This document shows, in pieces, positions 33,751 to 54,163 of a stretch of DNA of 61,618 nucleotides. The stretch spans positions 1 to 61,618 of the forward strand of contig CAZKXU010000006.1 in the NCBI GenBank assembly GCA_964556665.1. The letters run 5' to 3'. Each line of letters begins with the position of its first letter. Positions within the stretch are counted from its first letter, which is position 1. The notes beneath the pieces were generated by a model, which worked only from the letters and a program-made list of their open reading frames with translations, searched no databases and had not been told where the DNA came from. The stretch is from an uncultured Bdellovibrionales bacterium. GTDB taxonomy: Bacteria > Bdellovibrionota_C > UBA2361 > CAZKXU01. A program made the position numbers and the translations under genes.

Positions 33751-33751
33751 G

Positions 33752-37078: not shown

Positions 37079-37163
37079 TCTACAGGTTTTGAGGTGCAAA
37101 TAAGCTAATTTCATAATCTTCCCTATCGAGTTTAAGCTTGAGGTGTAATATAATACAAGTGAT

Positions 37164-38087: not shown

Positions 38088-38098
38088 AAGATAAGTAT

Positions 38099-38506: not shown

Positions 38507-38531
38507 GGAAACATATATTTTTCCTAACCTC

Positions 38532-38828
38532 CTAATTGAAGATTATTTTTGCCTCTGTTCGTTTCTGGATCTCATCTTTTTGGATACCTGGTGCTAGTGC
38601 TCCTCCAAATAAGTTTTTTCACGTCTAGCATCACATCGTTGCCCCACCTTGTCACGCTTCTCAGTCGGAAAATCCTCGCAATACTCCAGTATTGCTGCGG
38701 ATTTCCTCCTTCCGAGGCGTGCCAATCTGGGGCAACGCTGCGCGCTATACGTGAAAAAACTTATTTGGCGAAGCACTAGTTCGATCAGCTTTAATCCTCC
38801 AGCAACTACTTTGCGAGATCTCCATCTT
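38532..38828 (-). pseudogene. Degenerate duplicate of the scoB 3' end, interrupted by a MITE and internally deleted
   Basis: 38532-38597 and 38776-38809 match 43332-43427 (RTEAKIIFN* vs RTEAKLIFN*); 38813-38828 matches 43624-43639. Confidence 0.88.
38594..38779. mobile_element. Palindromic MITE flanked by duplicated CTAG
   Basis: ctagtgctcctccaaataagttttttcacgt ... acgtgaaaaaacttatttggcgaagcactag; central gcaatact-cc-agtattgc lies on the symmetry axis; removing it restores continuous scoB sequence. Confidence 0.88.
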
Positions 38829-38878
38829 TGCATTCAGCCCAAAAAATTCTCACCCAAAAGATTTTCCCCAAAAAACTT

Positions 38879-39151
38879 TCTCAGTGACAACGCTTACGGT
38901 TGTTATAGTTGAGTTGATTTCAAAGCAGCAGAAAATATGAATTACTTCAGGGAATAAGGTCAAATCTAGTCGCCAATATCTTACGTGCTTTAGAGAAAAA
39001 TATGCTTTGAAGGCATATTTTAAGGCAAACATAGCTCGCTAACTGGCTTAATACTTAGCGCTAATATTCTGTATATATTGGGTTTTTAGTCACCAGCTTA
39101 AGTGATTTAAAATCTACAACTTTTATTAGGAGGTTCGCAATGTCAGTGAGA
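38879..39151. mobile_element. Non-autonomous 273-bp element with the same end motif as the transposase element
   Basis: Left TCTCAGTGACA, right TGTCAGTGAGA; both flanked outward by GG-terminated short repeats (38838-38878; 39152-39177). Confidence 0.72.
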
Positions 39152-39377
39152 CAAGGTGCTAGGGTGCTAGGTGCTACGAAATATTAGTATAAAATTCCAA
39201 ATAATACCTATGAACCATATTGTGCAATTCCCATGACCTTACTTTAGAGAGATTTTTATCTAATTTAATTAAAAGCTAAATTTTAGGTAACTCATCTTCT
39301 CATTTTTATAATAACAATATTAACGGTCGCTTGTTATAGAAAAACATTTGACCAATTTATTATTCTAGAGGTTTTAT

Positions 39378-39791
39378 ATGCGTAATTTACTTTGTCTTGC
39401 TCTTTCAATAGCAGTTGTACTACCAATAGTTGCATCTGCTCAAATAGCACCTGGGTTTAATATTAAGCGACTTGAAAAGCGGCTGCAGACAGATGGTTTT
39501 ATCAATGGTAAAAATTGTTATTGGCGCTTGACCAATGAAGTGAGAGTCTCAGCCGGTGCTAACGACCTCAAAATTATTCATAATATTTCATGCAATAGTG
39601 GCGATCTGTTCTATAGTAGTAATTTCTATCAAACAAGAGGAGGATCACTGAAAATTCTAGATGGAGGCGGCGATTTTACTGGTTCAGGTTATTTACCTGA
39701 GGGTAAAAACCATACTATATATGTAACTAATTTGGATCCTAGTAACGATGGGTATTTAGAATTTTCAGCTCTTTGTTGCCCAATATCGTAA
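39378..39791 (+). CDS. Small secreted hypothetical protein
   Basis: gagg RBS, signal peptide ending ASA, hairpin after the stop. Confidence 0.72.
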   Translation: MRNLLCLALSIAVVLPIVASAQIAPGFNIKRLEKRLQTDGFINGKNCYWRLTNEVRVSAGANDLKIIHNISCNSGDLFYSSNFYQTRGGSLKILDGGGDFTGSGYLPEGKNHTIYVTNLDPSNDGYLEFSALCCPIS

Positions 39792-39805
39792 GTCTTGTTA
39801 ATAAG

Positions 39806-39833
39806 CCTAAATCCGGTTAAGGCCGGGTTTAGG
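39806..39833 (+). terminator. Hairpin, probable terminator
   Basis: cctaaatccgg-ttaagg-ccgggtttagg; weak U-tract. Confidence 0.5.
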
Positions 39834-39990
39834 TACTTCCGGGAACTGGCGCCAGGCAACTTATTAAATGCTGCTGAAATATCAAAAGATATTTGTAGGT
39901 GAAGTAACGATTATTCCAAAGAGAGGCTCTATTTGTTAGCCATTAATTATTTCAAATGGTTGAAGCCTGATATTTTAAGTAACTTAAAAA

Positions 39991-40051
39991 TATCGTCGTG
40001 TGTGAGAAAACGTGCAGGAAAACGTGCAGGGGCAGGGGGGGAAACGTGCAG
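39991..40051. repeat. Degenerate element end (tatcgtcgtgtgtgaga) followed by AAACGTGCAGG repeats and truncated units
   Basis: tgaga aaacgtgcagg aaaacgtgcagg ggcagg ggggg aaacgtgcag. Confidence 0.75.
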
Positions 40052-40106
40052 TGATATTTTTAACAGTTCGATAATTGGTAAAGAGGCAAAGCCTTCTGCT
40101 TCCTCC

Positions 40107-41156
40107 TTAATCTAAAAATTTCGTTTGATTATCAATCGCTACTACTTTAATCCATGTAGCCTCAAGTGTCCCAGGATATACAGCCAATCGAATTTTTGAG
40201 CGATGCTCCTCAACTTTATTGTATTGATAATATTTTACCTGAACGCGATCTAATTTTCCTTCAAGAATTGGTGAGAAATAGAGGAAATAACTATCAGCTC
40301 CTTTTTTGCGATCTATCTCCCGTTTATTACTTACTATCACTTCATAAAATTTGGGTTGTGAATAATCAAGATTGTTATTAATAAAGTTTTGTACTCCCTC
40401 ACCTGCTTGAATCATGGTTACAAAGACAGAGATGATAGAAATTATCAGATGTAGCTGTGAGTTAGGAAATCCTCTAATTATAAAATAATTTAAAATTGAA
40501 AAAATACTTAATAAAATTAATAGCAGCGCAACTACCTCCGGCCAGATCTGATTAGGATCGACAAGTGAACCTATGGAAGATAAATCAAGAGTTAATAAGA
40601 GCGCAAAAATAATGGCTGTAAATAAATAAGCACAAGTAAGCTTTAACTGCCATCTAGGATCATCGACATCAATTCCTTGCTTAAGTAAGTTATTTATAAT
40701 CTCTCCAAGCCTTTGGAGTTTGCTAGTAAGTTCCTCTCGATATAAATCAAGCTGCTCAGATAATTTTGGATTTAGCTGAGCCGTAATCATCGAGTCGCGC
40801 TGCTGGTGCGATTTGCAGGTGGAGATACTAGTAACTCCAAGGTTAAAGAGCTCTTCAATAACTTTTCTAAACTCATCATTTTTAATAAGGGCTAAAGTAA
40901 ATTTAGGATTAGGAATTACAATTTTATACTTTTTATCAAAGGCAGGTGCAAAACTTTCAACCTTTGAATTGATCTTAAGCTTATACATCAACCGAGAGAA
41001 ATTAGTCTCTAAGGAGAAATCAATATTAACATCAATTCCAAAATTGATCTTAAATATTTTACAATTTTTCGGAATAGTCCCAAATTTCAATATTAGAAAT
41101 ATCGGCAACAGCGAAATAAATACAAATATTCCTATTACTACAGGGGTAATTTCCAT
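40107..41156 (-). CDS. AT-rich hypothetical membrane protein (about 4 TM)
   Basis: ORF track; N-terminal TM plus three central hydrophobic segments. Confidence 0.72.
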   Translation of the reverse strand: MEITPVVIGIFVFISLLPIFLILKFGTIPKNCKIFKINFGIDVNIDFSLETNFSRLMYKLKINSKVESFAPAFDKKYKIVIPNPKFTLALIKNDEFRKVIEELFNLGVTSISTCKSHQQRDSMITAQLNPKLSEQLDLYREELTSKLQRLGEIINNLLKQGIDVDDPRWQLKLTCAYLFTAIIFALLLTLDLSSIGSLVDPNQIWPEVVALLLILLSIFSILNYFIIRGFPNSQLHLIISIISVFVTMIQAGEGVQNFINNNLDYSQPKFYEVIVSNKREIDRKKGADSYFLYFSPILEGKLDRVQVKYYQYNKVEEHRSKIRLAVYPGTLEATWIKVVAIDNQTKFLD

Positions 41157-41844
41157 TATTTTATTACATTATCTTTAACCTAAATAGCAAGGCAAATTTC
41201 TAAAAGCTATCAGCTGCTTGCATCCACTACTCTCATTTCAACTGCACTATTTAGGTTTAAAGGAGTATATGGATCAGCCTTTTAAAACGATAAAAAGTGA
41301 TTGAAAACATTTACTTTTGTAATATAACTAGTTCACCTATTGGATGAGCCTACCGATGAGTTGTTTTCAATCATTTTTTACCCTAAAGATTTTGCAACGA
41401 CATTTTTTATTTACCAGAAAGTGCGTGACCTTTAGCCGTAACTAATAAACTCAGAAGTAATCAGTATGGAGCGCGATGCTCCTAGCGCTGGTAATCTTGC
41501 GATATGCGCTGTGCTAGCGGCCAGATGACGCTTACCGGGAGCAATAACCAGATTAACATGTTGCTTATTGAGCTTTGAGCGGGAAGTTTCACTTGGCGTA
41601 AGGTATTGTCTTTACCGAAAACTCCATCAGCGACGAAAGAATGGAGGTGAGGATTAAAGTTTAGAGAAATCGCGTTTTGCGCGGACTAATGGATAGCTTC
41701 GCCATCAATCAACGAGCTCGGTTGATGGGCTTCGCCCATCCCTCGCACGTCCAGCTGTTTGAATGACAAAAGCAGCAGCGGGCACACCTTTGCCAGGGAG
41801 CGCCGATTCAAACACCTGGCGCAGGCTCTCCACCCTTGGCAATG

Positions 41845-42432
41845 TCACCGAGATAATTTTTTTTTGACAACACTCTTAAGTAACATCTCAAGCCGCTCTA
41901 GTATTTCCGGCTCCTCCTTAAGTTCGATAAGTGGCGCAAGTTCTTCTCTAATGATCGCAATATTTAGTTTTTCTGCCTGTCGTTTCAATGTGCTATCTAT
42001 ATCAATCCAATCCTTTGCTCTATTAGCAAAAGCTTTTAGAATAATTAGATCCTCTGCGGAACAGGTAAGGAGTTTGATATTTCTGTAATATTGAAACTTT
42101 GTAGCTCGCTTAATAATATTTTCTTCGAAGGGCATAGCACCTAAAGAAATGTCTAACGGGACGCCATTACTGGCTTCGAGTAAAAGCACCCGAAATGATA
42201 AAGCAAATTCCTTTGCATCACCTCGTCTTGCCTTAAATTGTTGAAGAAGTGCATCTATAAACCTTTCTTCTAAACCAAAACCAGTTATTACGGTTAAATC
42301 TATATCTTGCGTTAGACGAGGTTCAGCCCAGCGCTGGACTGCCAAACCTCCTATTATACAAAATTTCCATTTAAGACGCTCACAGAAATCTTGAATTTCT
42401 TGAGCTGCTACAAGTAATTTACTTTTGGCCAA
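41845..42432 (-). CDS. Pol-beta-superfamily nucleotidyltransferase (AbiEii/DUF6036-like)
   Basis: IIGGLAV......R.TQDIDL, SAEDLIILKAFANR.KDW.DI. Confidence 0.8.
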   Translation of the reverse strand: MAKSKLLVAAQEIQDFCERLKWKFCIIGGLAVQRWAEPRLTQDIDLTVITGFGLEERFIDALLQQFKARRGDAKEFALSFRVLLLEASNGVPLDISLGAMPFEENIIKRATKFQYYRNIKLLTCSAEDLIILKAFANRAKDWIDIDSTLKRQAEKLNIAIIREELAPLIELKEEPEILERLEMLLKSVVKKKLSR

Positions 42433-42664
42433 GTCTCCATCGCATAAAATATTTCTGTTGTTCTATTAACCCAGAGGTTGAAGCTCTATTGGGATCTAGT
42501 ATGATATTGTCGGCATGTTCAAAAATTCTTTCTATGGCTTGGCGACACTGCTTTTCAGTCATCTGTCTAAGCTCGTTTGAAGAGTGTTCCCCTAGAGCAA
42601 CAGAAGCTGATTTCCATTGCTTGATCCAAGCAAGATGATCCGGGTTGGGCACTTTGTCCGACAT
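42419..42664 (-). CDS. Small protein overlapping the nucleotidyltransferase start (putative antitoxin/partner)
   Basis: 81 aa, 14-nt overlap, same strand. Confidence 0.65.
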   Translation of the reverse strand: MSDKVPNPDHLAWIKQWKSASVALGEHSSNELRQMTEKQCRQAIERIFEHADNIILDPNRASTSGLIEQQKYFMRWRLGQK

Positions 42665-44849: not shown

Positions 44850-45158
44850 ATGCAGAGTAATACTATATCACCTAGCTCGACAGTGAGGCTTCCGCAAATC
44901 TCTGAAAATAAAACTATAGCTAATGGGGAGGGGGCCAGGTTTGGACAGGTAATGGATGAGCTGAGAGGTAAGTCTCGCGATCCGTATATAGAGCTAAAGA
45001 GCTTAAAGGAGAAGCTTTTAGGAGGTGCAGAGATTCCACCAAAAGAGCTTCTTTTATATCAGATTCGGGCAAGCGAATACGGACTTAAGGTCGAATTAGT
45101 TTCCAAGGTAGGTGAAAGTCTAAGCGCTAGTCTTAAAAAACTACAGAGCGGGAATTAG
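44850..45158 (+). CDS. SctI/HrpB2-like inner-rod-type protein (tentative)
   Basis: C-terminal PKELLLYQ.....Y...VELVSKV......LKKLQ resembles SctI/needle-family C-termini; first gene of the export operon. Confidence 0.55.
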   Translation: MQSNTISPSSTVRLPQISENKTIANGEGARFGQVMDELRGKSRDPYIELKSLKEKLLGGAEIPPKELLLYQIRASEYGLKVELVSKVGESLSASLKKLQSGN

Positions 45159-45162
45159 TCAG

Positions 45163-46020
45163 ATGGAATCTGAGGAAGTTAAAAGATATCTTATTAAGAG
45201 TCTCGCAATTGAAAGAGAGCTCACCCATACAAGAAATGAGCTTTCAGAGCTTAAGTACACTCAGAGCATTGAAGAGCGTAAGCTAAATGAGTGCAGAGCT
45301 AAATTTGCTAAGGTCAAAGAGGCTCTAGAGAAAAGGTCTACTAAAGATCCTGCTCTCGGTCTACATGAAACAAGAGAGGGTATTAAGCGTCTTAAAGAAA
45401 AAACAGTCCAGGTTAATGCACAGGCGAGTAAGACAGATGCGATTAACCATAATATAGAGAAGCAGCTATGTAAGCTGTCTGCTGAGAATCGCAGGTTTGA
45501 ACGTTGCCAGGAGATCATTAAGGAACGGCGATTTAAGGAACTCCAGCAGCGTGAGGATATCGCAGCAGAGGAACTGCAGGAAGGTGGATTATTACTTAAA
45601 TATAGCAGCGTAGAGTCACTTCCCATAACTGCAGTGCCTGTTTCTAGTAATACTAAAACTCTCCATTCTTTCATGCAGGAAGAGAATTACTGTAGTCATA
45701 ATATGGAAAGTGGCACTTCTCACAGTGAGCCTATGCCTTCATATCATGACTTTGTAGGAGAGATCTCAAAATTAAAGATCTGGAATTCACTAAATACAAG
45801 CAGAGGAATAAATTTTGAGTATAAAGATTCTACTGGTGAAAAGATCCTAGTAGATCTCTTTAGTCTTAGAGCAGATGAACTTACAGTAAATTTAAGTACA
45901 GCAAGTAAGGCAAAGCGTAGAGAACTTTTAAGTGTCAGAAGTCGGATAAAGCAATCACTCGCAGAGACTGGGTATAAATCTAAGATTGATATAATAGGAG
46001 ATTCAGGTGCCGAATATTAA
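45163..46020 (+). CDS. Coiled-coil SctO/FliJ-like N-terminus fused to a FliK/SctP-like C-terminal domain (tentative)
   Basis: About 145-aa charged coiled coil; C-terminal ILVDL....ELTVNL......RRELL.....IKQSLAETG pattern; position before sctR. Confidence 0.5.
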   Translation: MESEEVKRYLIKSLAIERELTHTRNELSELKYTQSIEERKLNECRAKFAKVKEALEKRSTKDPALGLHETREGIKRLKEKTVQVNAQASKTDAINHNIEKQLCKLSAENRRFERCQEIIKERRFKELQQREDIAAEELQEGGLLLKYSSVESLPITAVPVSSNTKTLHSFMQEENYCSHNMESGTSHSEPMPSYHDFVGEISKLKIWNSLNTSRGINFEYKDSTGEKILVDLFSLRADELTVNLSTASKAKRRELLSVRSRIKQSLAETGYKSKIDIIGDSGAEY

Positions 46021-46663
46021 TCCTATCTGGCTTGTCCTGGCTAGTTTCCTGCTAGCCCTAGCTCCGATCTTAGTTGGGCTTCTGACTTCGTATGTAAAGG
46101 TTAGTATCGTTCTTGGAATGTTGCGTAACGGCATCGGAGCTCAACAGGTTCCGGGAGCGCTGGTAGTCATGGCGTTATCTATTGCCCTTACAGCATTTAT
46201 CATGGCACCTACAATAGAGCGCACCTCTCAGATAGCAATAGGAATGAAGATCGAGGATCGCACCCCAACAGTTTCTGATATCAAGGCGATTGATCCGCTA
46301 CTAGTTCCGTGGCGTGAATTTATGATTAAGCATGCCGGCAACAGAGAGATTGCGGCATTAAAGCTGATGAGGCCTTCTCTAACAGTTGGGCAAGAACATG
46401 AGATCGGGAAAGAGTCACTATCCTTTGGGATTATCCTACCAGCCTTTGTCCTATCTGAGCTTAAGGAGGCATTTGCAATGGGATTTGTGCTACTCCTGCC
46501 GTTTCTGCTTATCGACTTAGTTGTCTCGAATGTCCTAGTAGGGTTAGGGATGATGATGGTGAGTCCAACAATGATCTCATTGCCGCTTAAATTACTGCTA
46601 TTTGTCGGATGTGATGGTTGGATTCTACTTTCACGGGGTTTAATTAATTCCTACAATGTTTGA
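46007..46663 (+). CDS. sctR: Type III export gate SctR (FliP family)
   Basis: TSYVKVSIVL..LRN.IG.QQVP, PAFVLSELKEAF, LGMMMVSP..ISLPLKLLLFV..DGW; no FliP-type signal peptide. Confidence 0.88.
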   Translation: MPNINPIWLVLASFLLALAPILVGLLTSYVKVSIVLGMLRNGIGAQQVPGALVVMALSIALTAFIMAPTIERTSQIAIGMKIEDRTPTVSDIKAIDPLLVPWREFMIKHAGNREIAALKLMRPSLTVGQEHEIGKESLSFGIILPAFVLSELKEAFAMGFVLLLPFLLIDLVVSNVLVGLGMMMVSPTMISLPLKLLLFVGCDGWILLSRGLINSYNV

Positions 46664-46916
46664 GATCTATATTCGAAACACCTTCATTCTAGTGATTGTA
46701 TTCTCAGGCATTCCGTTGCTAGTGAGTTCGGTGTGCGGTTTAGTTATCTCCATAATGCAGGCCGCTACCCAGATACAGGAGCAGAGTTTAAGCTATCTTG
46801 TTAAGTCTTTAACAGTCAGTATCGTTTTTTATCTACTGTCGAATTTTTATGCGAGTGAGTCCGTAAAGTTTTTTCAGGAGATGTTGGGAGGAATTGAGAG
46901 ATTAGGAAGGATGTAA
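46656..46916 (+). CDS. sctS: Type III export gate SctS (FliQ family)
   Basis: GLVISIMQAATQIQEQSLSYLVK. Confidence 0.9.
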   Translation: MFEIYIRNTFILVIVFSGIPLLVSSVCGLVISIMQAATQIQEQSLSYLVKSLTVSIVFYLLSNFYASESVKFFQEMLGGIERLGRM

Positions 46917-46945
46917 TTAAAGATTTTATTTAAAATAGACTAACA

Positions 46946-47674
46946 ATGGAGCACGCTCTACTAAGCAGTTTTGTCCCTTCATTTTTCCGTGCACTTGGAT
47001 TGCTCTATATATTGCCATTTGGGGAGGGGTATCTTAACGCTGCAACTAAGCTTGCTATTGCCGTAGGAATGGCACTCTTTATCCAGCCAGAGCTGCCAGC
47101 AGCTGGCCCGCTATATCCGATCTCATATATGTCGGAGTTTCTAATAGGTATATGTATCGGACTACCTACCGCTCTTACCATCTCGGCCTTTTCAATGTGG
47201 GGAGAGCTTATGGATACAGCGCGAGGTCAGAACATCTCGTATATCCTAGATCCTCTTAGTAACATTCAATCGCCATTACTTGGGGTATTTATGAACAATC
47301 TTGCCTGGAGCAGTGCTGTGCTTCTAGGGGTCCTTGAATTAAATCTGGTCGGTTATGTAAGGAGTTTTAATATAATTGCTGCCGGCGGATTTGAGATCTT
47401 CAATCTCACTACTATAGCCTCTCAGATGTTGAAGTTTCTCGGTATAAGTATCTCAGCACTACTACTTTTTCATCTACCTGTAGCGCTTCTATTCCTAATG
47501 ATCGAATTAGCTCTTGGATATATTGCGAAAGTTATACCGCGGAGCTCATTTGCCGCTGAATCATTCCAGATAAAGTCGTATCTTGGACTTTTAATGATTG
47601 TCTTGCTGCTTCAGTTGGACGTTCTGCCAAGTCTCCTCTCTTTTACTAAGCATGGAGCTTTACTGTTGGAGTAG
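46946..47674 (+). CDS. sctT: Type III export gate SctT (FliR family)
   Basis: E.LIG..IG, GELMDTARG, DP, ELALGYIAKVIP, F.IK; multi-TM; synteny. Confidence 0.85.
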   Translation: MEHALLSSFVPSFFRALGLLYILPFGEGYLNAATKLAIAVGMALFIQPELPAAGPLYPISYMSEFLIGICIGLPTALTISAFSMWGELMDTARGQNISYILDPLSNIQSPLLGVFMNNLAWSSAVLLGVLELNLVGYVRSFNIIAAGGFEIFNLTTIASQMLKFLGISISALLLFHLPVALLFLMIELALGYIAKVIPRSSFAAESFQIKSYLGLLMIVLLLQLDVLPSLLSFTKHGALLLE

Positions 47675-48457
47675 GTGATGCCGGAGGAGAAGCCTTATAA
47701 GCCTACCAAACGGAGATTAGATAAGGCACGTCGAGACGGGAAAGTCCTTAAAAGTCAACAGCTTACTCAGTCTATTGTAGTTGCATTACTTCCTCTTCTC
47801 TGCATTTATTTAGCAGGTCCTGCTTGGGTAAGGATGAGAAAGTTGTTAGAATATCAGTTGACACTAGGGTTCACCGAGCCGCTCTCTGCATTTTCTGCTA
47901 TGTTAGAAATACTTTGTGAATTCCTCTTTGTCGTATTATTGTTAGGCTCGTTTCTAGGAGTAGTTCTGGAAGGAGTTCAGATCGGCTTTCGGTTTGAGGG
48001 GGCACTTATAGCTCCAAAGTTGAGTCGTTTGAATCCAATAGCAGGGGTAGGTAAAACTCTTTCTAGTTTACGACAGATCTGGACTCAGGCGCTGCGTCTT
48101 CTGTTTCTTGTAACTGTATTTATCTGGTTTTTTAAGGGCAACTATCTTGCATACGTAAAGCTCTACTTCTTACCTCTGGAGCAGGCTTTGGAGGTCGGAC
48201 TTGAGCTACTTAAAAGACTACTGTATGTGATGGGAGTAGCAGTGATGATCGTAGGCGGCGTTGATTATCTTTTAACACGTCGTCGCTTTGTAAAAGATCT
48301 CTCCATGAGCTTGGATGAGCTAAAGCGTGAGCAGCGAGAGGATGAAGGTGATCCTCATATTAAGGCCAGACGTAAGGCGCTCCACGAGGCCATACTGATG
48401 CAGGATATTGTAAGACGGGTACGCAGTTCGAAAGTTATAGTAGTTGAGAAGATGTAA
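47675..48457 (+). CDS. sctU: SctU/FlhB N-terminal part (TM domain plus CN linker), ending at the normal NPTH position
   Basis: EEKPYKPT.RRL.KAR.DG, PKLSRLNP..G, L.MS.DELKRE....EGDPHIKARR, ends KVIVVEKM*. Confidence 0.88.
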   Translation: MMPEEKPYKPTKRRLDKARRDGKVLKSQQLTQSIVVALLPLLCIYLAGPAWVRMRKLLEYQLTLGFTEPLSAFSAMLEILCEFLFVVLLLGSFLGVVLEGVQIGFRFEGALIAPKLSRLNPIAGVGKTLSSLRQIWTQALRLLFLVTVFIWFFKGNYLAYVKLYFLPLEQALEVGLELLKRLLYVMGVAVMIVGGVDYLLTRRRFVKDLSMSLDELKREQREDEGDPHIKARRKALHEAILMQDIVRRVRSSKVIVVEKM

Positions 48458-51400
48458 TGTTGCTAGAAGCAGTTGCAGTAAAATTAAGAGAATTTTCAGC
48501 TCAGATCGTTAAGCTAAACGATGCTCAGAGTCTCTGTGATTTTGCTGCAGAATTTATAGCCGGAGAGGTTAAGCCTGACTGTATATTTCTCTACTATTCA
48601 ATTGATAATCTAAAGATTCACACAAGGATTGAAAGCAAGTTAGCAAAAGTTGATGTCTATGATTGGGAGCCTATTTACGATCCATTTGTAACCTCAGCTG
48701 ATGAGATTACGCTGCCACTTTATATCAATGATCTGCAACGCAACGTCATCCCATTACCTCTCCAGCCTCGCATTAGGGCAGATCTTAAATCTTTAGCTAT
48801 TTGGGGGATAGAGCGCGGCACTTTAGTCAGTGGAGCGATAGAGCTTCACTTCGGTGATGCATACCACCGTTGGCGTCGCGAAGAGCTTTTTCTGATAGAG
48901 CAGCTCTCTCAACTATTAGCAGTGGCCTTAGAGAGGTTCAGTACTTCAACTGCTGCTATCACAGATAATTCAGCTGAATATGAGCGCGTAGCGGAATATG
49001 GCAATCTCTTAATTGTACGCACCGACCGGGAACTTCGTATCACAAGTGTATTTGGCAGCACTGAGCGCATTACCGGAATTAAATTAAATGATTTTCTGAA
49101 TGATAGTGACATTTGGATGCGTGTAATTTACCCGCAAGATCTAGTAAAGCTTAGCCGCAAGATCGCCCGCATGCGACTTAGCCCATCCGAGATTTCCGAA
49201 GAGATTAGAATCCTCCATCAGGAGAGCGGAGCATTACGTTGGATACTACTTCGCGCCATACCTCTTTACGACAAAGGGAGGAATTTCATAGGTTGGGAGG
49301 GTTTTGGTTTAGATATAACGGACCGTTATGAAGCCCAGCAAGGGCTTAAGGCTCAAAGTAAAAGAGTAGAGGCACTCTATCAAATTTCACGTGCCTTACA
49401 GTTCACTATGGACCCGGCACTCGTGGTATTAAAGGGGCTAAAATCTCTCATTAAAGCTACTAATTCAGATGCCGGCATCGGCTTATTTTACGACCGTAAT
49501 AGTGAAATGTTGGAATTAGTCGCAGCCGAAGGTCTTTCACAGCAGTATGTTGCAGCAGTGAATAAGGTAATAAATGGGCCAAGTCTTGTACGGTATGCTA
49601 TTGATAACCGTGAAGGTATTTTACTTGATAATATTCAGCAAGATTCTAGAGCCGCAGTAGAAGTCGCCAAAATCGAGGATTTAAAATCCACGATTGTTAT
49701 GCCGCTTATGATTGACCAAACCGTATTAGGAGCGCTTGTTCTTTTTTGTAGAAAGGCGTCACGCTACAGTAATGCGGATTTTGAGCTAGTTGAAGCAGCA
49801 GCAAATCAGGTAGTTTTGGTATGCAAACAGGCGGATTTTTATGCAGCAGAGAAGAGACAGGCAAGCTCCTTAGCGGCGTTGTACCGATTAAGTCATGAGT
49901 TGGCAAAACATACGGCAACTAAAGAGATAGCAGAGAGTGCCTTCCCGGTTATTCAGGAGGAGTTTGGCTGTAAGAGGATATGGTTCGGTGTAATTAACGA
50001 CCAAGGCACTCATATTGTAGGCCAGGCTGGATATGGTCCTGGCATAAGACAGAGCATCATAGATGTACAGATCGAGTTAGATCTGCGACATGATTTCCTA
50101 GATGATGCTATTAAAAGTAAGAAGCCGGTAATAGTTAAGCCAGGGGAGCCGATGGAATGCTCCGGATTAGCACGTATCATGAAGAAACTAAAGCCTGGAA
50201 CCTTCATAATTGTGCCGTTAATCTCTCTCGGGCAGGTTATGGGTATTTTAGTGGTTGAACCTTCCGTTCCATCTAACTTTTTTGCACAGAGCAAGTTGCC
50301 GCTCTTAAGAAGTATGGCGAGTGAGATCGCAAATGTGATTTTAGCACGAAGATTCGAGTATAGAATGGCAGAGGCCGACAAGATGAGGATGGCCGGCATG
50401 TTAGCTTCAGGAGTAGCTCATAATTTCAATAATATGCTCCAAGCAGTTATGGGACAAGCCTCACTTATCGAAATGCAGCTTCCTGAGGACTCCATGCTAC
50501 GACCTTCAGCTAAGATGATCGTTGAAGCAGCGCACCGAGGGGCGCTACTGATTAAGCAACTGCTTAGTTTTTCCCGCGCAGAATCAGTCTCCTGTGTGCC
50601 TATCTCACTCAAAAAGATGCTTTTAGATTCAAATGATTTTTACAGATCGGTATTAGGCTCAGCTGTCGCGTTGAACGTAGAGATTGGAGAGGATGTGCCT
50701 GAGGTTAAGGCGGATTACAATCAGCTGCAGCAGGTCATAGCAAATATCCTAGTTAATGCTAAAGAAGCTATTAATTTTAAAACTGACGGCAAGGTCGATT
50801 TATCGCTTAAACGGGTGCGATTACTTTCAGGCGAGGTTGACCCGGAATTGCCGCCTGGAGTGTATGTTAGGCTGGACATATCAGATAACGGTGCCGGCAT
50901 GGACGCAGAGCGGCAACGCCGTTGTTTTGAGCCATTTTTTACTACAAAGAATACCGACTCAGGTAGTGGGGTTGGTATCAGCGGTTCTGGGTTAGGACTT
51001 TCTACTGCATATTCAATCATAAGACAGCATGATGGCATGCTTACAGTAAGAAGCTCCCCCGGACAGGGCTCTGTCTTTAGCTTACTCATTCCAGCATTGG
51101 TAGCTATAAAAGAGAGTGCTAAAACTGAACAGACAAAATATGAAGCACTTGATGTCATGATCTTCGATCTTGATGATTCAACCAGTCTCTCCGTAAAGTC
51201 TGCGCTTGAATCGATCGGACTTAACTCTGCTATCTACTCTGATCGAGAGGATCTATTTAAGACGGTTAAAGAGAGTAGTAAGGTTTCCCTCCTCATCTTT
51301 GATGCCGAACGGTACGGCTATGAGTTTGAGGAGATGATTAGCAAGATTAGAGCAATGAAGCCTGAACTTAAGATCTTGATCTCAGCTCTTAATTACACCC

Positions 51401-51621
51401 GTTGGCAACGCATCTTTGGTCATTTAGAAGGTATTGAGATCATAGAAAAACCTATCGGCGTTTGGGCTGTGCACTCAGCGGCTAAGAGACTATTGGGAAG
51501 AAATAATGCTACACAGAAACTTGTTCAGGCAATTGAAAAGGAGAAGATTAACACGGAATTAAATCTCTCCGGCGAGTCTCAGGAGAATAATGACACACTA
51601 CTTTATGGATCAAAACTGTAA
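48457..51621 (+). CDS. Cytoplasmic hybrid histidine kinase (GAF-PAS-GAF-GAF-HisKA-HATPase-REC)
   Basis: PAS W...IYPQD...RW...DIT; AHNFNN H-box; NILVNAKEA; DNGAGM; FEPFFTTK; GSGLGL; REC LLIFD...EKP. Confidence 0.9.
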   Translation: MLLEAVAVKLREFSAQIVKLNDAQSLCDFAAEFIAGEVKPDCIFLYYSIDNLKIHTRIESKLAKVDVYDWEPIYDPFVTSADEITLPLYINDLQRNVIPLPLQPRIRADLKSLAIWGIERGTLVSGAIELHFGDAYHRWRREELFLIEQLSQLLAVALERFSTSTAAITDNSAEYERVAEYGNLLIVRTDRELRITSVFGSTERITGIKLNDFLNDSDIWMRVIYPQDLVKLSRKIARMRLSPSEISEEIRILHQESGALRWILLRAIPLYDKGRNFIGWEGFGLDITDRYEAQQGLKAQSKRVEALYQISRALQFTMDPALVVLKGLKSLIKATNSDAGIGLFYDRNSEMLELVAAEGLSQQYVAAVNKVINGPSLVRYAIDNREGILLDNIQQDSRAAVEVAKIEDLKSTIVMPLMIDQTVLGALVLFCRKASRYSNADFELVEAAANQVVLVCKQADFYAAEKRQASSLAALYRLSHELAKHTATKEIAESAFPVIQEEFGCKRIWFGVINDQGTHIVGQAGYGPGIRQSIIDVQIELDLRHDFLDDAIKSKKPVIVKPGEPMECSGLARIMKKLKPGTFIIVPLISLGQVMGILVVEPSVPSNFFAQSKLPLLRSMASEIANVILARRFEYRMAEADKMRMAGMLASGVAHNFNNMLQAVMGQASLIEMQLPEDSMLRPSAKMIVEAAHRGALLIKQLLSFSRAESVSCVPISLKKMLLDSNDFYRSVLGSAVALNVEIGEDVPEVKADYNQLQQVIANILVNAKEAINFKTDGKVDLSLKRVRLLSGEVDPELPPGVYVRLDISDNGAGMDAERQRRCFEPFFTTKNTDSGSGVGISGSGLGLSTAYSIIRQHDGMLTVRSSPGQGSVFSLLIPALVAIKESAKTEQTKYEALDVMIFDLDDSTSLSVKSALESIGLNSAIYSDREDLFKTVKESSKVSLLIFDAERYGYEFEEMISKIRAMKPELKILISALNYTRWQRIFGHLEGIEIIEKPIGVWAVHSAAKRLLGRNNATQKLVQAIEKEKINTELNLSGESQENNDTLLYGSKL

Positions 51622-51625
51622 CCGT

Positions 51626-51883
51626 ATGGTTAATCCCAAATACAAGCTCGCTATCGGACTGGAATATGAAGAGAATGGAGAGGCAGCTCCTAGGCTGGGA
51701 GTAAAGGGTGAAAACCTTATTGCAGATGAGGTTGTTAAGGTAGCCCGTCGTTTTGGTATTCCGGTCGTAGAAAAGGCAGATCTAGCAAAATCCCTCACTG
51801 CGCTTGAATTAGAGGAGGAGATCCCTGAGAGCCTATATCAAGCCGTTGCCGTTATATTAAATGAAATAGGAAAGAAGGGCTAA
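51626..51883 (+). CDS. Stand-alone SctU/FlhB C-terminal (CC) domain (FlhX-like)
   Basis: MVNP...AIGLEY.....AP....KG....A......A....IPVVE...LA..L.......IPESLYQAVAVIL. Confidence 0.88.
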   Translation: MVNPKYKLAIGLEYEENGEAAPRLGVKGENLIADEVVKVARRFGIPVVEKADLAKSLTALELEEEIPESLYQAVAVILNEIGKKG

Positions 51884-51985
51884 GTTAAAGAAAGGACAGT
51901 AGTCTATAATATATCTTTTCAGATAGGCATACCTCTTGCACTTTACAGATTCCTTAGTTTTTTAATATAATCTAGGGGGTTAGAC

Positions 51986-53044
51986 GTGTTTGCAGATTCT
52001 ATCTCGGACTCTAGTTTCCCATATATGAGTACTTTAGAGTTAATTGAACTTAAGAACCAGGGTGCACACTCTCTTGCAGTATTGCAGGCAGATACGTTAA
52101 TTGGACGTGAGCCGGATAGTGGTGGGATTGCAGTTAACAATAGTGCTGTCTCAAGAAACCACGGTAGGTTTATGCGTGTCTCCGATTACTGGCTTTTCAA
52201 AGACCTAGCTAGCACTAATGGATCTTGGCTAAACGGTCAGCAGCTCCGCTCAGAGCAATTATGCATATTAAGGCAGTCAGATATTTTGCAGCTTGCTGAT
52301 AGTGCCTTTAAGATTTTGATTAAATCCCCATCTGAGTCTAATAAGCTTCCAACAGGTCGTTCTTTATTAGTTTTTAAAAATGATACATTTGTTGAGGAGT
52401 ATCATATCCCGGAATACGGGAGAGCGTTCGTTTTAGGAGGCAGAGAAGGTGATCTGCAGTTTGAGGAGAGCGGAGAGGATCTCCCGGTACTTGTAGTGGA
52501 GGGCCGCGGCGCAGATATCGTAGTTTATGGTCTAAGAAAGTCACAAAGTATTACTGTTAATGGTGAGGAGACTCGTTCGACTAAAGTAGTCGTCGAGCGC
52601 GATGAGATTAAATTTAAGAATTATTCGTTTCTTATTAACTGTGCAAGAGCTGTCACGCGTATGACAGAGAAAGAGCCACCTCCACAGATTAAAGCGAAGC
52701 CTGTAGTAGCAGGAGGAGCTGCGGTGCTAAAGGAGTGGGGCAGCGAAGAGCCAGCGCACAGGAGCGTATCCACGCAGGAGAAGGGGATGCGTACCCATTC
52801 CGGGCGTATCATGTTTGGTGCTATAAGTGAAGGAGAAGTGGAGTCGGATGCTACAGTGGCTATCGACTCGTCCATTGTCTCACGCCGTCTTTCAGGAATT
52901 GAAAAGAATCCAGTCTTGTCGAGACATGAAGAGGATTCACAGGAGTTGATGCTTAATTCATTAGAGGATCGGCTCCTAATAGTAATCGGTTTTGTAATGC
53001 TGATAGCCTTGATGATTGGTGTGGCTGTTTGGGTGTTCGTGTAA
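51986..53044 (+). CDS. FHA-domain protein with second FHA-like domain and C-terminal TM anchor
   Basis: IGR, VSRNH, DLASTNGSWLNG; C-terminal LLIVIGFVMLIALMIGVAVWVFV; true start may be ATG 52026. Confidence 0.85.
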   Translation: MFADSISDSSFPYMSTLELIELKNQGAHSLAVLQADTLIGREPDSGGIAVNNSAVSRNHGRFMRVSDYWLFKDLASTNGSWLNGQQLRSEQLCILRQSDILQLADSAFKILIKSPSESNKLPTGRSLLVFKNDTFVEEYHIPEYGRAFVLGGREGDLQFEESGEDLPVLVVEGRGADIVVYGLRKSQSITVNGEETRSTKVVVERDEIKFKNYSFLINCARAVTRMTEKEPPPQIKAKPVVAGGAAVLKEWGSEEPAHRSVSTQEKGMRTHSGRIMFGAISEGEVESDATVAIDSSIVSRRLSGIEKNPVLSRHEEDSQELMLNSLEDRLLIVIGFVMLIALMIGVAVWVFV

Positions 53045-53185: not shown

Positions 53186-54163
53186 CTAACTCGGCAACAC
53201 CACCCTAAGTTTATACGCACTAAGATCAAGCCTTTTATATTCAATCTGTAGTTTGTTCGTCTTAACGATATCCTGTAAGGCCTCTTTGCAAAGTAATCTT
53301 TCTCCTACGCTCTGCTCTCCAAAAATTAGATCAATGTCAGAGGCAGCGCCGCCCCAGGAACCCTGCTGAGCTTCAGCAGTGATAATAAGATTGCATTTTG
53401 AATGGTCGGGGAGTACCCTAATCTCAATTATCCCTGAGGAGCCAACCGTATCAACAGCTAAAAGTATAAGCTCTGCTAGGATTCTAAAAAGATGCGGCTG
53501 GGTAAGTAGAATCTTCAGATCCTCGCGGCAGTCAACACGTACTGACACATCTGATGGAATAACATGATCAAGGTATTGTAAGACTATGTTGAGTGTGGAC
53601 TGAATGCTGCTTTGAGGGTTTTTATTAGCTGTAGGAGTGTCGATACTAACTGATTGGAGCGCACCGCGATCTAGTAGGACACTACTTGCTAACAATCCAA
53701 GAGATCGTCCACGCGAGACATCCCTAACTGTCCTTGCTAAATCGCGCACGGCTACTTTAACTCGCTCAGCACCATAAATCCTCTCGCGGCGTAGTGCGAT
53801 GAAAGCCCAGTACGTAAGCTCTACATCAAAGGGCTGCTGTAGTACTACCGCACAGCCAGCTTCGTATAGTGGCCTGCTAAAACTTCGATCGTCAGATAGC
53901 AAAAGAGTTACTACTGGAATGTGAGCTAGATCTGGATCTGCTTTAAGTTCAGCTAATTTTGCCAGGGCATTTATCTCACCACTAAGTAGGCTAGGAACAA
54001 TCACCAGATCAAAAGGATCTGCCTCATCCCGCATTAAGTGCAAAATATCTTTTCCCTCATTTACTTCACGAACCATATAGTCGTGACGTCTAAACAGATT
54101 AGTAATCTGCGTCCTTTTACTATCAGAGGGCTTAAATAATGCGATGCGTAAAGGAATGTTCAA
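53186..54163 (-). CDS. Degenerate receiver domain plus pseudo-histidine-kinase-like protein
   Basis: REC-like FDLVIVP, IPVV.L, QQPF; SLGLLASSVLLD lacks the His; L..ILAELILLA.D in the N-box position. Confidence 0.65.
   Translation of the reverse strand: MNIPLRIALFKPSDSKRTQITNLFRRHDYMVREVNEGKDILHLMRDEADPFDLVIVPSLLSGEINALAKLAELKADPDLAHIPVVTLLLSDDRSFSRPLYEAGCAVVLQQPFDVELTYWAFIALRRERIYGAERVKVAVRDLARTVRDVSRGRSLGLLASSVLLDRGALQSVSIDTPTANKNPQSSIQSTLNIVLQYLDHVIPSDVSVRVDCREDLKILLTQPHLFRILAELILLAVDTVGSSGIIEIRVLPDHSKCNLIITAEAQQGSWGGAASDIDLIFGEQSVGERLLCKEALQDIVKTNKLQIEYKRLDLSAYKLRVVLPS

Follow-up and report, generated by a model that had tools for sequence, protein, structure and literature searches.

Nine close-packed genes are found on the plus strand at positions 44850–53044 of the window, as we call the whole stretch of 61,618 nt which was analysed. 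In 5' to 3' order they code for two proteins which we designate orfA and orfB, for SctR, SctS, SctT, the N-terminal part of SctU, a histidine kinase, the C-terminal part of SctU and an FHA protein. The junctions between them measure 4, −14, −8, 29, 0, −1, −32 (or +4, if the third ATG is the start) and 102 nt. The two subunits, A and B, of a CoA-transferase are encoded upstream on the minus strand. The GC content of the cluster is similar to that of the remainder of the window, and a scan for promoters and terminators gave 10 of them, not above chance (18 expected). Every gene which the initial annotation had named here is recovered at its position. A literature search did not find any paper describing this cluster.

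The same order of nine genes is found in three other genomes (L001, L002 and L003; contigs JAFLCA010000012.1, RFKT01000004.1 and JBIKWF010000024.1): the cluster is thus not due to chance. Relatives carry the labels Bdellovibrionota, Bdellovibrionales or Deltaproteobacteria. All nine ORFs are intact in the four genomes. Protein identity between the window and the three relatives is 36–58% over the cluster: 52–58% for SctR, 47–52% for the kinase (over 842–941 columns), 36–44% for the N-part of SctU and 46–53% for its C-part. The 3' flank, with LPS genes for an epimerase, a heptosyltransferase and a Kdo-kinase, is also common to the four loci. Identity is 60–65% for the epimerase and 44–53% for the heptosyltransferase. 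The cluster is about as conserved as these housekeeping neighbours, so that, judged by its sequence, it is vertically inherited and under selection. A FliO-like gene (PF04347) is present in all three relatives, but the window has none.

The export gate proteins SctR (46007..46663, 218 aa), SctS (46656..46916, 86 aa) and SctT (46946..47674, 242 aa) match the Pfam models FliP (E 7.9e-56), Bac_export_3 (E 6.3e-19) and Bac_export_1 (E 2.5e-29). When NCBIfam models are compared, those for Sct proteins score somewhat higher than the flagellar ones: 181 against 165 bits for SctR, 60.7 against 56.8 for SctS, 75.4 against 65.6 for SctT and 158 against 134 for SctU. SctR passes the cut-off of the EscR/YscR/HrcR subfamily (NF009438, 202.9 bits vs 179); SctS stays below the equivalog cut-offs of the SctS and FliQ models, and SctT below the cut-offs of the SctT and FliR models. 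The motifs TSYVK, QQVP and MMMVSP, which had been pointed out in SctR, are present in its translation, and the Met-loop GLGMMMVSP is kept with its surroundings in all four members of the clade. SctR had also been described as devoid of a signal peptide: its Pfam match begins at residue 15, which leaves no room for one. In trees the gate proteins form a clade of their own, apart from the flagellar group, from the "short locus" of Myxococcia and from the proteobacterial injectisomes. This clade is long-branched, with stems of 1.47–1.64 changes per column, and a tree which joins it to the flagellar rows is not rejected by the AU test (p 0.35). The initial annotation had proposed that a complete canonical set elsewhere, together with a position inside an ordinary clade, would speak against its reading; as for the second half, the phylogeny places the gate proteins outside the ordinary flagellar and injectisome clades.

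SctU is encoded in two pieces. The N-part (47675..48457, plus strand, 260 aa) covers positions 1–256 of the 335 in Bac_export_2 (E 1.6e-50), the C-part (51590..51883, plus strand) positions 256–333 (E 2.8e-18). The N-part has four hydrophobic segments, a cytoplasmic linker and a first strand. It ends in KVIVVEKM, where canonical proteins go on with NPTH: the break between the two genes falls precisely on the site of autocleavage. This is the case for all nine members of the clade which were seen (the window, the three other loci and five metagenome proteins), and the stop of the N-part has an identical position in five short relatives and in the three locus orthologues. In other loci a single ORF of 336–451 aa is found in 75 of 77; the remaining two run off the contig. 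The C-part has 97 aa from its first ATG, which is preceded by AGGAG, or 85 aa from an alternative ATG at 51626. Its orthologues have 84–91 aa and start 1–4 residues ahead of P/S/A-K/R-Y/H. The NPTH site appears as NPKY in the window and as PSRH, AKY and RPRY in the others, so that the catalytic Asn is kept in one of the four and the His also in one. The stop of the N-part overlaps the kinase start as TAATG in the window; at both kinase junctions such overlaps (TAATG or 4 nt) are found in the window, L001 and L003.

Positions 4–256 of the N-part clade profile align to residues 3–256 of SpaS (112 bits), and positions 208–255 to the 54-aa chain A fragments of cleaved EscU. The C-part profile aligns to the 83–87-aa chain B cleavage fragments of FlhB and EscU. 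In the PDB it scores higher with flagellar FlhB C-domains (56.8 bits for residues 4–78 of chain 3b1s_B, and 47.8 bits) than with PscU, YscU or EscU (37–32 bits). These alignments indicate that the two SctU genes correspond to the two solved cleavage fragments.

The first gene, orfA (44850..45158, plus strand, 102 aa), has no match of its own in Pfam or NCBIfam. Neither orfA nor orfB rises above a curated cut-off, and sequence searches of the PDB gave no match for either. However, when orfA is combined with its orthologues of L001 and L003 into a profile, 96 proteins are retrieved, 91 of which were aligned, leaving out three short and two weak ones. Among these 91, 66 match PF17001 (T3SS_basalb_I) at E≤0.1, with 1e-6 as the best value; T3SS_needle_F is matched by eight and FliE by five. 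Its closest neighbours among the named clusters of the Atlas are "needle MxiH/YscF..." and "inner rod subunit SctI" (0.94). The family HMM also matches an ORF of about 162 aa in each of 12 Myxococcia short loci, and a C-terminal ELVSKV block is invariant. All this supports orfA as a putative SctI-like inner-rod or adaptor protein of the SctI/SctF superfamily.

The second gene, orfB (45163..46020, plus strand, 285 aa), is predicted by AF2 to have an N-terminal two-helix hairpin (2–140), a disordered linker and a C-terminal domain of T3S4 type (about 195–281). The mean pLDDT is 68, with about 85–90 in the hairpin and 70 in the C-domain. A Foldseek search of 350,542 PDB chains gave nothing below 1e-3: the first hit is the FliK C-terminal domain 2rrl (E 1.1e-3), the second the substrate-switch domain of PscP, 5cuk (E 8.2e-3, TM 0.56, rmsd 3.6 Å over 85 columns). 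The window protein has E 0.034 with PF02120 (Flg_hook) and fails its cut-off. The C-domain profile finds 113 representatives, and 30 of the 97 scanned match this model (best 9e-6). With hhalign a marginal similarity to Xanthomonas HpaP is found, C-end to C-end (P 0.0011), and a weak one of the hairpin to HrpB7 (P 0.0026). Fold and family thus support orfB as a probable SctP/FliK-like switch protein. The labels "SctI-like" and "SctP-like" had been proposed at first sight: they lack a direct Pfam match, but are backed by the families and by the fold search.

The kinase (48457..51621, plus strand, 1054 aa) is a cytoplasmic multi-sensor histidine kinase. Its domains are, in order, GAF-like, PAS, GAF, GAF-like, HisKA and HATPase_c, followed by a degenerate receiver-like tail; the Pfam matches are GAF_2 (9.2e-25), PAS_3 (7.3e-10), HisKA (1.3e-06) and HATPase_c (8.1e-20). 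Residues 631–1020 are covered by VirA-like and CckA-like NCBIfam matches. The tail matches Response_reg in one of the four orthologues (E 3.3e-4). The kinase has the same position in the three relatives and is conserved to the same degree as the gate: it is a member of the cluster in all four loci.

The last gene (51986..53044, plus strand, 352 aa) codes for a tail-anchored tandem-FHA protein (Pfam FHA, 1.7e-12), also with the same position in the three relatives. The AF2 model has two beta-sandwich domains (16–113 and 125–218), a disordered linker and a C-terminal TM helix, its only hydrophobic segment (residues 330–348); there is no periplasmic domain. All four orthologues share unchanged GR, SRxH and TNGS blocks. 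The protein reaches 33.7 bits with Yop-YscD_cpl (cut-off 33.2); it is a generic FHA protein of phosphothreonine type, not a SctD. Its best Foldseek matches are phosphothreonine-binding FHA domains (Bdellovibrio DgcB with 1.3e-6, GarA/OdhI, EmbR, FhaA); CdsD has rank 39, and YscD, PrgH and MxiG do not appear among the best 50 listed. Without a periplasmic ring domain, the protein does not point to a canonical SctD/SctJ ring. A convergent gene (53186..54163, minus strand) codes for a receiver-like protein of 325 aa with a weak Response_reg match (E 3.1e-4; 2.2e-7 in L001). It has 474 aa in L001 and 477 aa in L003, both with a PAS-like middle part, and a weak HPTransfase match in L001; it is absent in L002. 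Of this middle part, some 150 aa are missing in the window. This protein is a possible signalling partner, of uncertain membership in the system.

No homologue of SctV, N, Q, C, J/F or D is found among the window ORFs of at least 50 aa, and Pfam scans of 53 window ORFs gave neither these parts nor any flagellar gene. SctV, SctN, SctJ, SctQ and the secretin had been noted as missing at the locus, and this extends to the 61.6-kb window. SctV, N, Q, J, C and D are also absent from the four loci with their visible flanks (upstream/downstream 44.8/8.6 kb in the window, 7.3/10 in L001, 3.0/6.4 in L002 and 6.6/10 in L003; 10–18 kb of visible DNA in each relative). In 46 of the 77 other loci a SctV/FlhA gene is found in the flank, mostly directly 3' of sctU; in the window's clade this slot holds the kinase. 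With the slot so occupied, and the missing parts not in the visible DNA, it is an assumption that they are encoded elsewhere. The initial annotation was right to see a reduced type III set, conserved rather than decaying: as far as sequence tells, the cluster encodes only a type III gate-and-switch core in a Bdellovibrionota-affiliated lineage. To that first reading we add the clade-wide split at the autocleavage site, the conservation of the kinase within the cluster, the FliO-like gene of the relatives and the generic nature of the FHA protein.

We consider that the cluster is probably (about 55%) a live gate-and-switch module wired to a kinase, for which SctV and the ATPase would be provided from another locus. 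SctR, S and T would form a helical gate wrapped by the four helices of the SctU N-part, as in the known SctRSTU and FliPQR-FlhB complexes (the composition of the gate is reviewed in PMC7911332). The C-part would dock non-covalently on the terminal strand of the N-part, as in cleaved SctU; autocleavage would then be dispensable, and its catalytic residues, Asn and His, would have drifted. The SctI-like protein may be an early substrate which caps the periplasmic side of the gate, and together with the T3S4 protein it might act on the C-part to switch substrate class: according to PMC3040844, HpaC (a T3S4 protein) and HrpB2 (a rod protein) bind the HrcU C-terminal domain. More speculatively, the kinase, translationally coupled to both SctU halves, and the FHA protein, whose phosphothreonine-binding residues are intact, could exert phospho-control of assembly or switching. 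The most likely source of SctV and ATPase would be scattered genes of the system itself or the flagellar FlhA and FliI of the cell; a gate working without them is less likely. Scattered but complete systems are known: Abby and Rocha count 21 among 216 NF-T3SS in the relevant part of PMC3459982.

Whether SctV and the ATPase are present elsewhere in these genomes decides how novel the cluster is. If the lineage had neither, the cluster would be an autonomous minimal gate, a new T3SS-derived inner-membrane conduit or signalling device, which could, for instance, let a small number of proteins out into the periplasm when the kinase allows it. We find this unlikely, since a T3S4 switch and a rod protein would have no purpose unless substrates were exported, and to our knowledge every T3SS studied requires a SctV/FlhA ring for export. 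The hairpin of orfB, by its weak similarity to HrpB7, could also be a SctO/FliJ-like stalk and imply an ATPase. The missing parts are indeed found in none of the four loci, but just 10–62 kb of each genome are visible. Such a gate would fit with a kinase as conserved as the gate in the slot of sctV/flhA, with a TM-anchored FHA protein which has no domain for building a ring, and with a separate, long-branched clade; reduced and conserved T3SS-like loci are also described in Myxococcales, in the sections of PMC3459982 which deal with them.

The higher scores of the C-part with FlhB, the FliO-like gene of the relatives and the AU test would agree with a further possibility, an alternative gate cassette, a second R-S-T-U set equipped with a rod and a switch protein of its own, which works in the FliF/FlhA/FliI scaffold of a flagellated cell and exports non-flagellar cargo under control of the kinase. 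Bdellovibrionota are commonly flagellated; however, we know of no case of gate swapping, and the window has no flagellar gene. The Sct models beat the flagellar ones for all four gate proteins, SctR passes only the Sct subfamily cut-off, and PMC12403147 reports FliO homologues from non-flagellar T3SS operons too, in Myxococcota and elsewhere. This cassette is therefore improbable. The reading of the cluster as what is left of a T3SS, once complete and now decaying and without function, is close to refuted. The two pieces of sctU, the lost partners, the lack of a FliO-like gene in the window and its shortened receiver-like protein might recall one, as might the Myxococcus loci once annotated as relics (PMC3459982, in the part on these loci). 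Against this, nine ORFs are intact in four genomes which have diverged to 36–58% identity, their conservation resembles that of housekeeping neighbours with functional motifs kept, the split is identical in all nine members at a site which is cut anyway, and orfA and orfB each belong to a family of about 100 proteins.

Canonical SctU and FlhB have the same order of domains, conservation extends to the strand ahead of the cut and to the core which follows, and their cleavage fragments are equal in length and register to the two gene products. Here the cut is at the gene level, with a 3.2-kb kinase gene between the halves; the canonical protein passes through an uncleaved state, which is impossible in this clade. 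Cleavage is needed in canonical T3SS, according to the pertinent section of PMC7911332. Stand-alone FlhB C-domain proteins (TIGR00789, flhB_rel) are also small separate homologues of the C-terminal fragment; this model matches our C-part at E 5.2e-17, with 61.8 bits, far below its cut-off of 117.35. They coexist with a full-length FlhB, whereas here the partner gene has no C-part of its own. Examples are YlqH of B. subtilis and FlhX/HP1575 of H. pylori.

Xanthomonas has the same trio of T3S4 protein, rod and SctU C-domain (HpaC, HrpB2 and HrcU-C; PMC3040844), but in a complete Hrp injectisome with secretin, ATPase, Q and V (L010); in sequence, HpaP and HrpB2 are matched marginally (P 0.0011 and 0.17). 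Chlamydial CdsD (CT664 FHA structure 3gqs) shares a true FHA domain on a T3SS membrane protein, although it is a large SctD whose periplasmic part has ring domains, while our protein ends at its TM helix. The order of genes in the chlamydial T3SS differs. Its core genes are distributed over several loci, by the account of them in PMC3459982, a precedent for scattering. A hat-like inner-membrane structure (Kaplan et al. 2022, PMC9380563) ties the flagellar T3SS core to an assembly which is neither flagellum nor injectisome. It depends on FlhA, its correlation is with the genes of flagella and not with those of NF-T3SS, and the passages describing it assign no genes to it: it is only an analogy.

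The needleless T3SS* of M. xanthus (mxan_2434-2464; Herrou et al. 2025, PMC12075869) is also derived from a T3SS and, in the sections which describe it, has no secretin, needle or translocon. It is a large cluster, reported to have all that a sorting platform requires, including the ATPase SctN; at our locus no sorting platform, ATPase or SctV is in view. It belongs to a predatory relative, where a role in prey lysis is shown. The second T3SS of M. xanthus, probably the short locus, is reported as uninvolved in prey killing in the relevant parts of PMC10469934 and PMC12403147. The short NF-T3SS locus of Myxococcales is likewise reduced, conserved and vertically inherited in former Deltaproteobacteria, and has no secretin or needle in the description given in PMC3459982. 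FliO-like genes are found in such systems, as in the relatives of the window. The initial annotation had pointed to the degenerate myxobacterial systems, and they are the closest known by gene content: homologous SctI-like rod genes are detected by the orfA HMM in all 12 loci. These 12 Myxococcia loci contain I, a J-like ORF, Q, R, S, T, an unsplit U and V. The window's clade, which forms a group separate from theirs in the tree, has no J, Q or V; it has a T3S4 protein, a U in two pieces with the kinase embedded between them, and an FHA anchor.

The cluster consists of nine plus-strand ORFs between positions 44850 and 53044, which follow each other with junctions of 4, -14, -8, 29, 0, -1, -32 (or +4) and 102 nt. 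The first two, orfA (44850-45158) and orfB (45163-46020), have no direct match with any Pfam or NCBIfam family. The other seven are recognized by Pfam: SctR/FliP (46007-46663, E 7.9e-56), SctS/FliQ (46656-46916, E 6.3e-19), SctT/FliR (46946-47674, E 2.5e-29), the N-terminal part of SctU/FlhB, which we call U-N (47675-48457, profile positions 1-256 of 335), a kinase of 1054 aa with PAS, GAF, HisKA and HATPase_c domains (48457-51621), the C-terminal part of SctU/FlhB, U-C (51590-51883, profile positions 256-333), and an FHA protein (51986-53044). The core set of non-flagellar type III secretion systems (NF-T3SS) has nine genes: sctC, J, N, Q, R, S, T, U and V (Abby & Rocha, PMC3459982). SctR, SctS and SctT are present in the cluster. 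In place of a single SctU protein with the motif NPTH there are two genes 3.2 kb apart, with the motif NPKY; this split SctU may be functionally equivalent to the canonical protein. Pfam scans of 53 ORFs, together with HMMs from annotated loci applied to all ORFs of at least 50 aa, detect no SctV/FlhA, ATPase (SctN), SctQ/FliN, SctJ/FliF, SctD, secretin, FliG or FliE in the window. The initial annotation, a gate cluster without SctV, SctN, SctJ, SctQ and secretin, is thus borne out within the window.

SctU is divided at its autocleavage site. Canonical SctU/FlhB cuts itself between Asn and Pro of the NPTH motif. U-N of the window ends in KVIVVEKM, and five short relatives and the orthologues of three related loci end at the same place in the alignment, the point at which NPTH or a variant of it follows in full-length proteins. 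U-C proteins start 1-4 residues ahead of P/S/A-K/R-Y/H. In the window the distance is 2 or 14 residues, according to the ATG chosen, and the first candidate ATG is preceded by AGGAG. Comparison with solved structures gives the same limits: the U-N profile of the clade, formed by the window and the relatives with a split SctU, aligns to residues 3-256 of SpaS and, in cleaved EscU, to the chain A fragments of 54 aa. The U-C profile matches chain B of cleaved FlhB and EscU, fragments of 83-87 aa, beginning at their residue 4 or 5. The two genes therefore encode the products which canonical SctU/FlhB obtains by self-cutting. The Asn is retained in only one of the four U-C proteins and the His also in one of four, as expected if the cleavage chemistry is no longer used. 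A split at the cleavage bond, together with drifted catalytic residues, argues that only the cleaved state of SctU/FlhB would be required. The clade is in this sense a natural experiment on autocleavage, in which a chemical cut has been swapped for a gene split at the same peptide bond. In the flagellar system the cut of FlhB is needed for the switch to late substrates, according to an excerpt of PMC7911332. We also considered U-C as a stand-alone FlhB-like protein of family TIGR00789, which was rejected (61.8 bits, with a cut-off of 117.35).

The split is shared by other genomes. A search with U-N finds five proteins of 185-270 aa with 32-43% identity; beyond these there are only full-length FlhB/SctU proteins of 344-382 aa, with 23-32% identity. 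We then have a sample of 80 loci, kept from a scan of one genome per species in GTDB. The best three (L001, L002 and L003) are labelled Deltaproteobacteria bacterium UWPOB_DELTA1, Candidatus Dadabacteria bacterium J135 and Bdellovibrionota bacterium bin89. Their common order is orfA, orfB, a FliO-like gene (PF04347), R, S, T, U-N, kinase, U-C and an FHA protein with a transmembrane (TM) helix; orfA of L002 is truncated by the contig end. Among the other 77 loci, 75 have a single U ORF of 336-451 aa and two run off the contig. The U-N stop overlaps the kinase start (TAATG in the window). At the other end of the kinase gene, in the window as in L001 and L003, the stop codon overlaps the start of U-C or directly adjoins it. 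In the three relatives the kinases have 882-1162 aa with GAF/PAS/GAF domains, and U-C has 84-91 aa. Identity to the window is 52-58% for SctR, 44-48% for SctS, 27-34% for SctT, 36-44% for U-N, 46-53% for U-C, 47-52% for the kinase, 31-39% for the FHA protein, 39-41% for orfA and 26-29% for orfB. The same epimerase, heptosyltransferase and Kdo-kinase genes come after the cluster in the window and in L001-L003; the epimerase is 60-65% identical and the heptosyltransferase 44-53%. The base composition of the cluster resembles its surroundings. The shared chromosomal position, this composition and a conservation like that of housekeeping genes argue for vertical descent under purifying selection rather than decay.

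A FliO-like gene is found directly 5' of sctR in all three relatives (PF04347, E 3e-6 to 2e-9, with one N-terminal TM segment), at 5420-5671 in L001, 1005-1310 in L002 and 4215-4709 in L003. It is missing in the window, where orfB (to 46020) overlaps sctR (from 46007). Further carriers of the orfA family are labelled 'Bdellovibrionales bacterium' (two), 'Deltaproteobacteria bacterium' and 'bacterium', and the Atlas cluster closest to the FHA protein consists mainly of Bdellovibrionota; the lineage is taken to be Bdellovibrionota-affiliated.

Upstream of the cluster there are two CoA-transferase subunits on the opposite strand. Downstream we find a minus-strand receiver-like protein, followed by genes of the LPS core: an epimerase, two heptosyltransferases, a Kdo/WaaP kinase and a sugar kinase. 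The rest of the window is filled by housekeeping genes (HflX, SucA, NusA, IF-2, RbfA, RNase III, Der, GuaA and others). Rfam and tRNA scans of the window give a single result, a tRNA-Leu at 25976-26057. The promoter and terminator scan of the window gave matches not above chance; its only strong match is a near-consensus sigma-70-like site at 51942-51971 (TTTACA, 18 nt, TATAAT; 11 of 12 positions), just 5' of the FHA gene, which may have its own promoter at this predicted site. On the minus strand, an AbiEii/DUF6036-type nucleotidyltransferase of 195 aa with an overlapping 81-aa ORF upstream (41845-42664) looks like a type IV toxin-antitoxin pair. The region 30000-42000 may be an island: its GC content is 0.375-0.41, compared with about 0.43-0.48 in other parts of the window, and within it five ORFs of 135-490 aa have no Pfam match (32187-33659, 33905-34861, 38099-38506, 39378-39791 and 40107-41156). 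In ORF 15991-17154 the match to the N6_N4 DNA methylase model is confined to the model's C-terminal end (positions 160-219 of 221) and falls near the ORF's own N-terminus; the ORF has an odd architecture or is a remnant.

The kinase gene lies between the two halves of the switch protein. With a HisKA domain of 28.7 bits (cut-off 26.9), a HATPase_c domain of 71.8 bits and the H-box VAHNFNN in its translation, the 1054-aa protein has the predicted features of a two-component histidine kinase. Its maintenance between both halves of SctU over long evolutionary distances points to a phospho-control acting at the type III gate itself, of which we found no description in the literature searched. In all four orthologues of the FHA protein, two beta-sandwich domains are followed by a disordered linker and, at the extreme C-terminus, by a TM helix; only 0-4 residues follow the helix and a periplasmic domain is absent. 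The GR, SRxH and TNGS blocks, which are the phosphothreonine-binding residues of FHA domains, are invariant. An identification with SctD was rejected, since the protein has no periplasmic ring domain, ends at the TM helix and has the fold matches of a generic FHA domain. It gives 32.1-40 bits with Yop-YscD_cpl (cut-off 33.2), and generic FHA scores higher. The top fold matches are phosphopeptide-binding FHA domains; the FHA domain of chlamydial CdsD has rank 39, and YscD, PrgH and MxiG are not among the best 50. Both the kinase and the FHA protein have the look of regulators integral to the cluster. The receiver-like protein (53186-54163, minus strand, convergent with the cluster) has 325 aa, and its orthologues in L001 and L003 have 474 and 477 aa, with a PAS-like middle part missing in the window copy. 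That of L001 also has a weak histidine-phosphotransferase-like match, and the gene is absent in L002. Taken with the CckA-like matches of the kinase, the receiver-like protein gives a hint of a possible phosphorelay.

The two small genes at the start of the cluster require profile and fold comparisons. The orfA profile, built from three orthologues, retrieves 96 proteins. Among 91 aligned relatives, 66 match the YscI/HrpB/PscI rod family (PF17001, T3SS_basalb_I), all of them weakly (counted at E<=0.1, best 1e-6), eight match the needle family and five FliE; the window protein itself has no PF17001 match at E<=0.1. Language-model look-alikes in Atlas clusters carry the names needle or inner rod SctI. 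In all 12 Myxococcia loci of our sample the orfA-family HMM finds an ORF of about 162 aa directly upstream of a SctJ-like ORF, in accordance with the 'inner rod' and 'smaller inner ring' genes listed for the short locus of Myxococcales in an extract of Abby & Rocha (PMC3459982). The predicted model of orfB, of moderate confidence, begins with a hairpin of two long helices; a disordered stretch leads from there to a small alpha/beta domain. A Foldseek search of 350,542 PDB chains places first the C-terminal domain of FliK (E 1.1e-3) and second the substrate-switch domain of PscP (E 8.2e-3). The C-terminus of orfB has the predicted fold of a substrate-switch (T3S4) domain; its sequence is below the cut-off (PF02120, Flg_hook, E 0.034). 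A word-indexed protein search with the orfB profile gave only two proteins; an exhaustive profile search with its C-domain gave 113 representatives, about 100 of them with 250-370 aa and the domain at the extreme end. The Flg_hook model of FliK (PF02120) is matched by 30 of the 97 relatives scanned, a set which excludes nine giant repetitive and seven short proteins. Neither the two orfA profiles (of 3 and of 91 sequences) nor that of orfB gave anything relevant in sequence searches of PDB. Small-profile hhalign comparisons with Xanthomonas were not significant (orfA with HrpB2, P 0.17; orfB with HpaP, P 0.056). With deep profiles we obtained P 0.0011 for the C-terminal part of orfB with HpaP, and for its N-terminal part P 0.0026 with HrpB7 and 0.028 with one FliJ. 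In the Foldseek search the hairpin matches coiled coils of a generic kind, Vipp1/PspA and subunit G of the V-ATPase among them. On the family and look-alike evidence we accept the initial reading of orfA as a putative SctI-like protein. The label 'SctO/P-like' given to orfB stands in part: on the fold evidence the predicted domain is accepted as SctP/FliK-like (T3S4), and a SctO-like hairpin is a lead only.

For all four gate proteins the non-flagellar NCBIfam models score better than those of fliP, fliQ, fliR and flhB, with small margins. SctR is above the curated cut-off of the EscR/YscR/HrcR subfamily, in agreement with the injectisome type assigned to it initially; SctS and SctT are best on Sct models, yet below their equivalog cut-offs. 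The trend is reversed when U-C is compared with solved structures: flagellar FlhB gives 56.8 and 47.8 bits; PscU, YscU and EscU give 37-32 bits.

We consider the cluster as a live gate-and-switch module which relies on partners encoded elsewhere, with a probability of about 0.55. In such a module, by analogy with SctRSTU, the R-S-T gate would be an R5S4T1 helical assembly with U-N wrapped round it, and U-C would rest against the strand that ends U-N, as it does in cleaved SctU. The rod protein would be exported first and cap the gate, and the T3S4 protein would act on U-C. In Xanthomonas the C-domain of HrcU is bound by both HpaC and HrpB2, as reported in an excerpt of PMC3040844. The partners might instead be dispensable: if the whole genome lacked both SctV and a T3SS ATPase, we would be dealing with a kinase-gated R-S-T-U conduit with a permanently 'pre-cleaved' switch protein, a self-contained third type III branch, neither flagellum nor injectisome, whose assembly or opening is controlled by His-Asp and phosphothreonine signalling. 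At the locus level, SctV (FHIPEP), SctN, SctJ/SctD rings, SctQ and secretin SctC are all absent from the stretches examined in L001-L003; a SctV/FlhA gene is found in the flank of 46 of the other 77 loci. We regard this self-contained conduit as rather unlikely. A cassette which uses a flagellar scaffold seems improbable; the window has no FliE/F/G, FlhA, FliI, rod or hook genes. That the cluster is a relic is very hard to sustain, as decay is opposed by the shared position, the composition and the housekeeping-like conservation.

The readings differ in their consequences. A self-contained conduit, if true, would mean that SctRSTU gates can be of biological use even where the FlhA/SctV engine is missing. 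Should SctV and the ATPase prove truly absent, this would be the smallest conserved T3SS-derived system known, and it would bear on the working of the export gate and on the early stages of the passage from flagellum to injectisome, which were inferred from Myxococcales loci by Abby & Rocha (PMC3459982, in extract). If the missing parts are elsewhere, as in the module with partners which we prefer, the cluster still represents a new T3SS family that branches deeply and belongs to an under-studied, possibly predatory phylum.

HMM scans, with Pfam on eight loci, show four kinds of context among the 80 loci. Some loci are flagellar, as in Gemmata and Vreelandella, and others are complete injectisomes of Proteobacteria, such as that of Xanthomonas. 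Twelve, all from Myxococcia, carry I, J-like, Q, R, S, T, U and V, and in 23 a full-length SctU stands alone. Trees were built for U-N (45 of 81 rows, identity under 75%), SctR (13 of 28, under 85%) and concatenated R+S+U-N (17 rows chosen by hand). Their sample comes from loci found with patterns of the window clade and is biased towards its relatives; L079 was called flagellar only by its position beside L007, and L014 non-flagellar without proof from context. The window clade is always starred and long-stemmed, and lies outside the flagellar, Myxococcia and proteobacterial injectisome rows. It is a separate clade. The possible orders of the groups are not distinguishable: of three groupings of the four groups, neither the one with the window clade sister to the flagellar rows (AU p 0.35) nor that with the Myxococcia rows (AU p 0.42) is rejected, and the support in the best tree is 45/9.

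The 23 loci with a lone SctU/FlhB-like gene (L005, L009, L011-L013, L015-L017, L019, L021, L022, L028, L032, L034, L036-L038, L042, L044, L053, L066, L068 and L077) have no other T3SS part detected within flanks of 2.2-20.8 kb. Almost all carry the label Polyangia-type Myxococcota or 'delta proteobacterium'. The gene lies, in L005 and L012, next to those of an M48 peptidase, a PLD-like protein and an ABC transporter. The U tree places the lone genes in clades of their own, and they make up an orphan SctU family. L035 has a FliO-like gene (5535-5831, minus strand) within a complete non-flagellar locus with SctD, secretin, SctV and SctQ, which agrees with the FliO reported in non-flagellar operons in an excerpt of PMC12403147.

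In the literature searched we found no description of a split flhB/sctU, of a kinase within flhB/sctU or of this arrangement in a Bdellovibrionota T3SS; in Gazi et al. 2012 'split' refers to the secretin, to HrcQ, and to hrcN and hrcV, which are degenerate. Already known are reduced loci in Myxococcales, the needleless T3SS*, FliO genes of non-flagellar operons and FlhB C-domains that stand alone. The 'short' NF-T3SS locus of Myxococcales has the rod protein in common with the window clade. It differs in having SctV and a small inner-ring (J-like) protein, whereas the loci of the window clade have neither a V nor a J-like ORF, and the two form separate clades in the trees.
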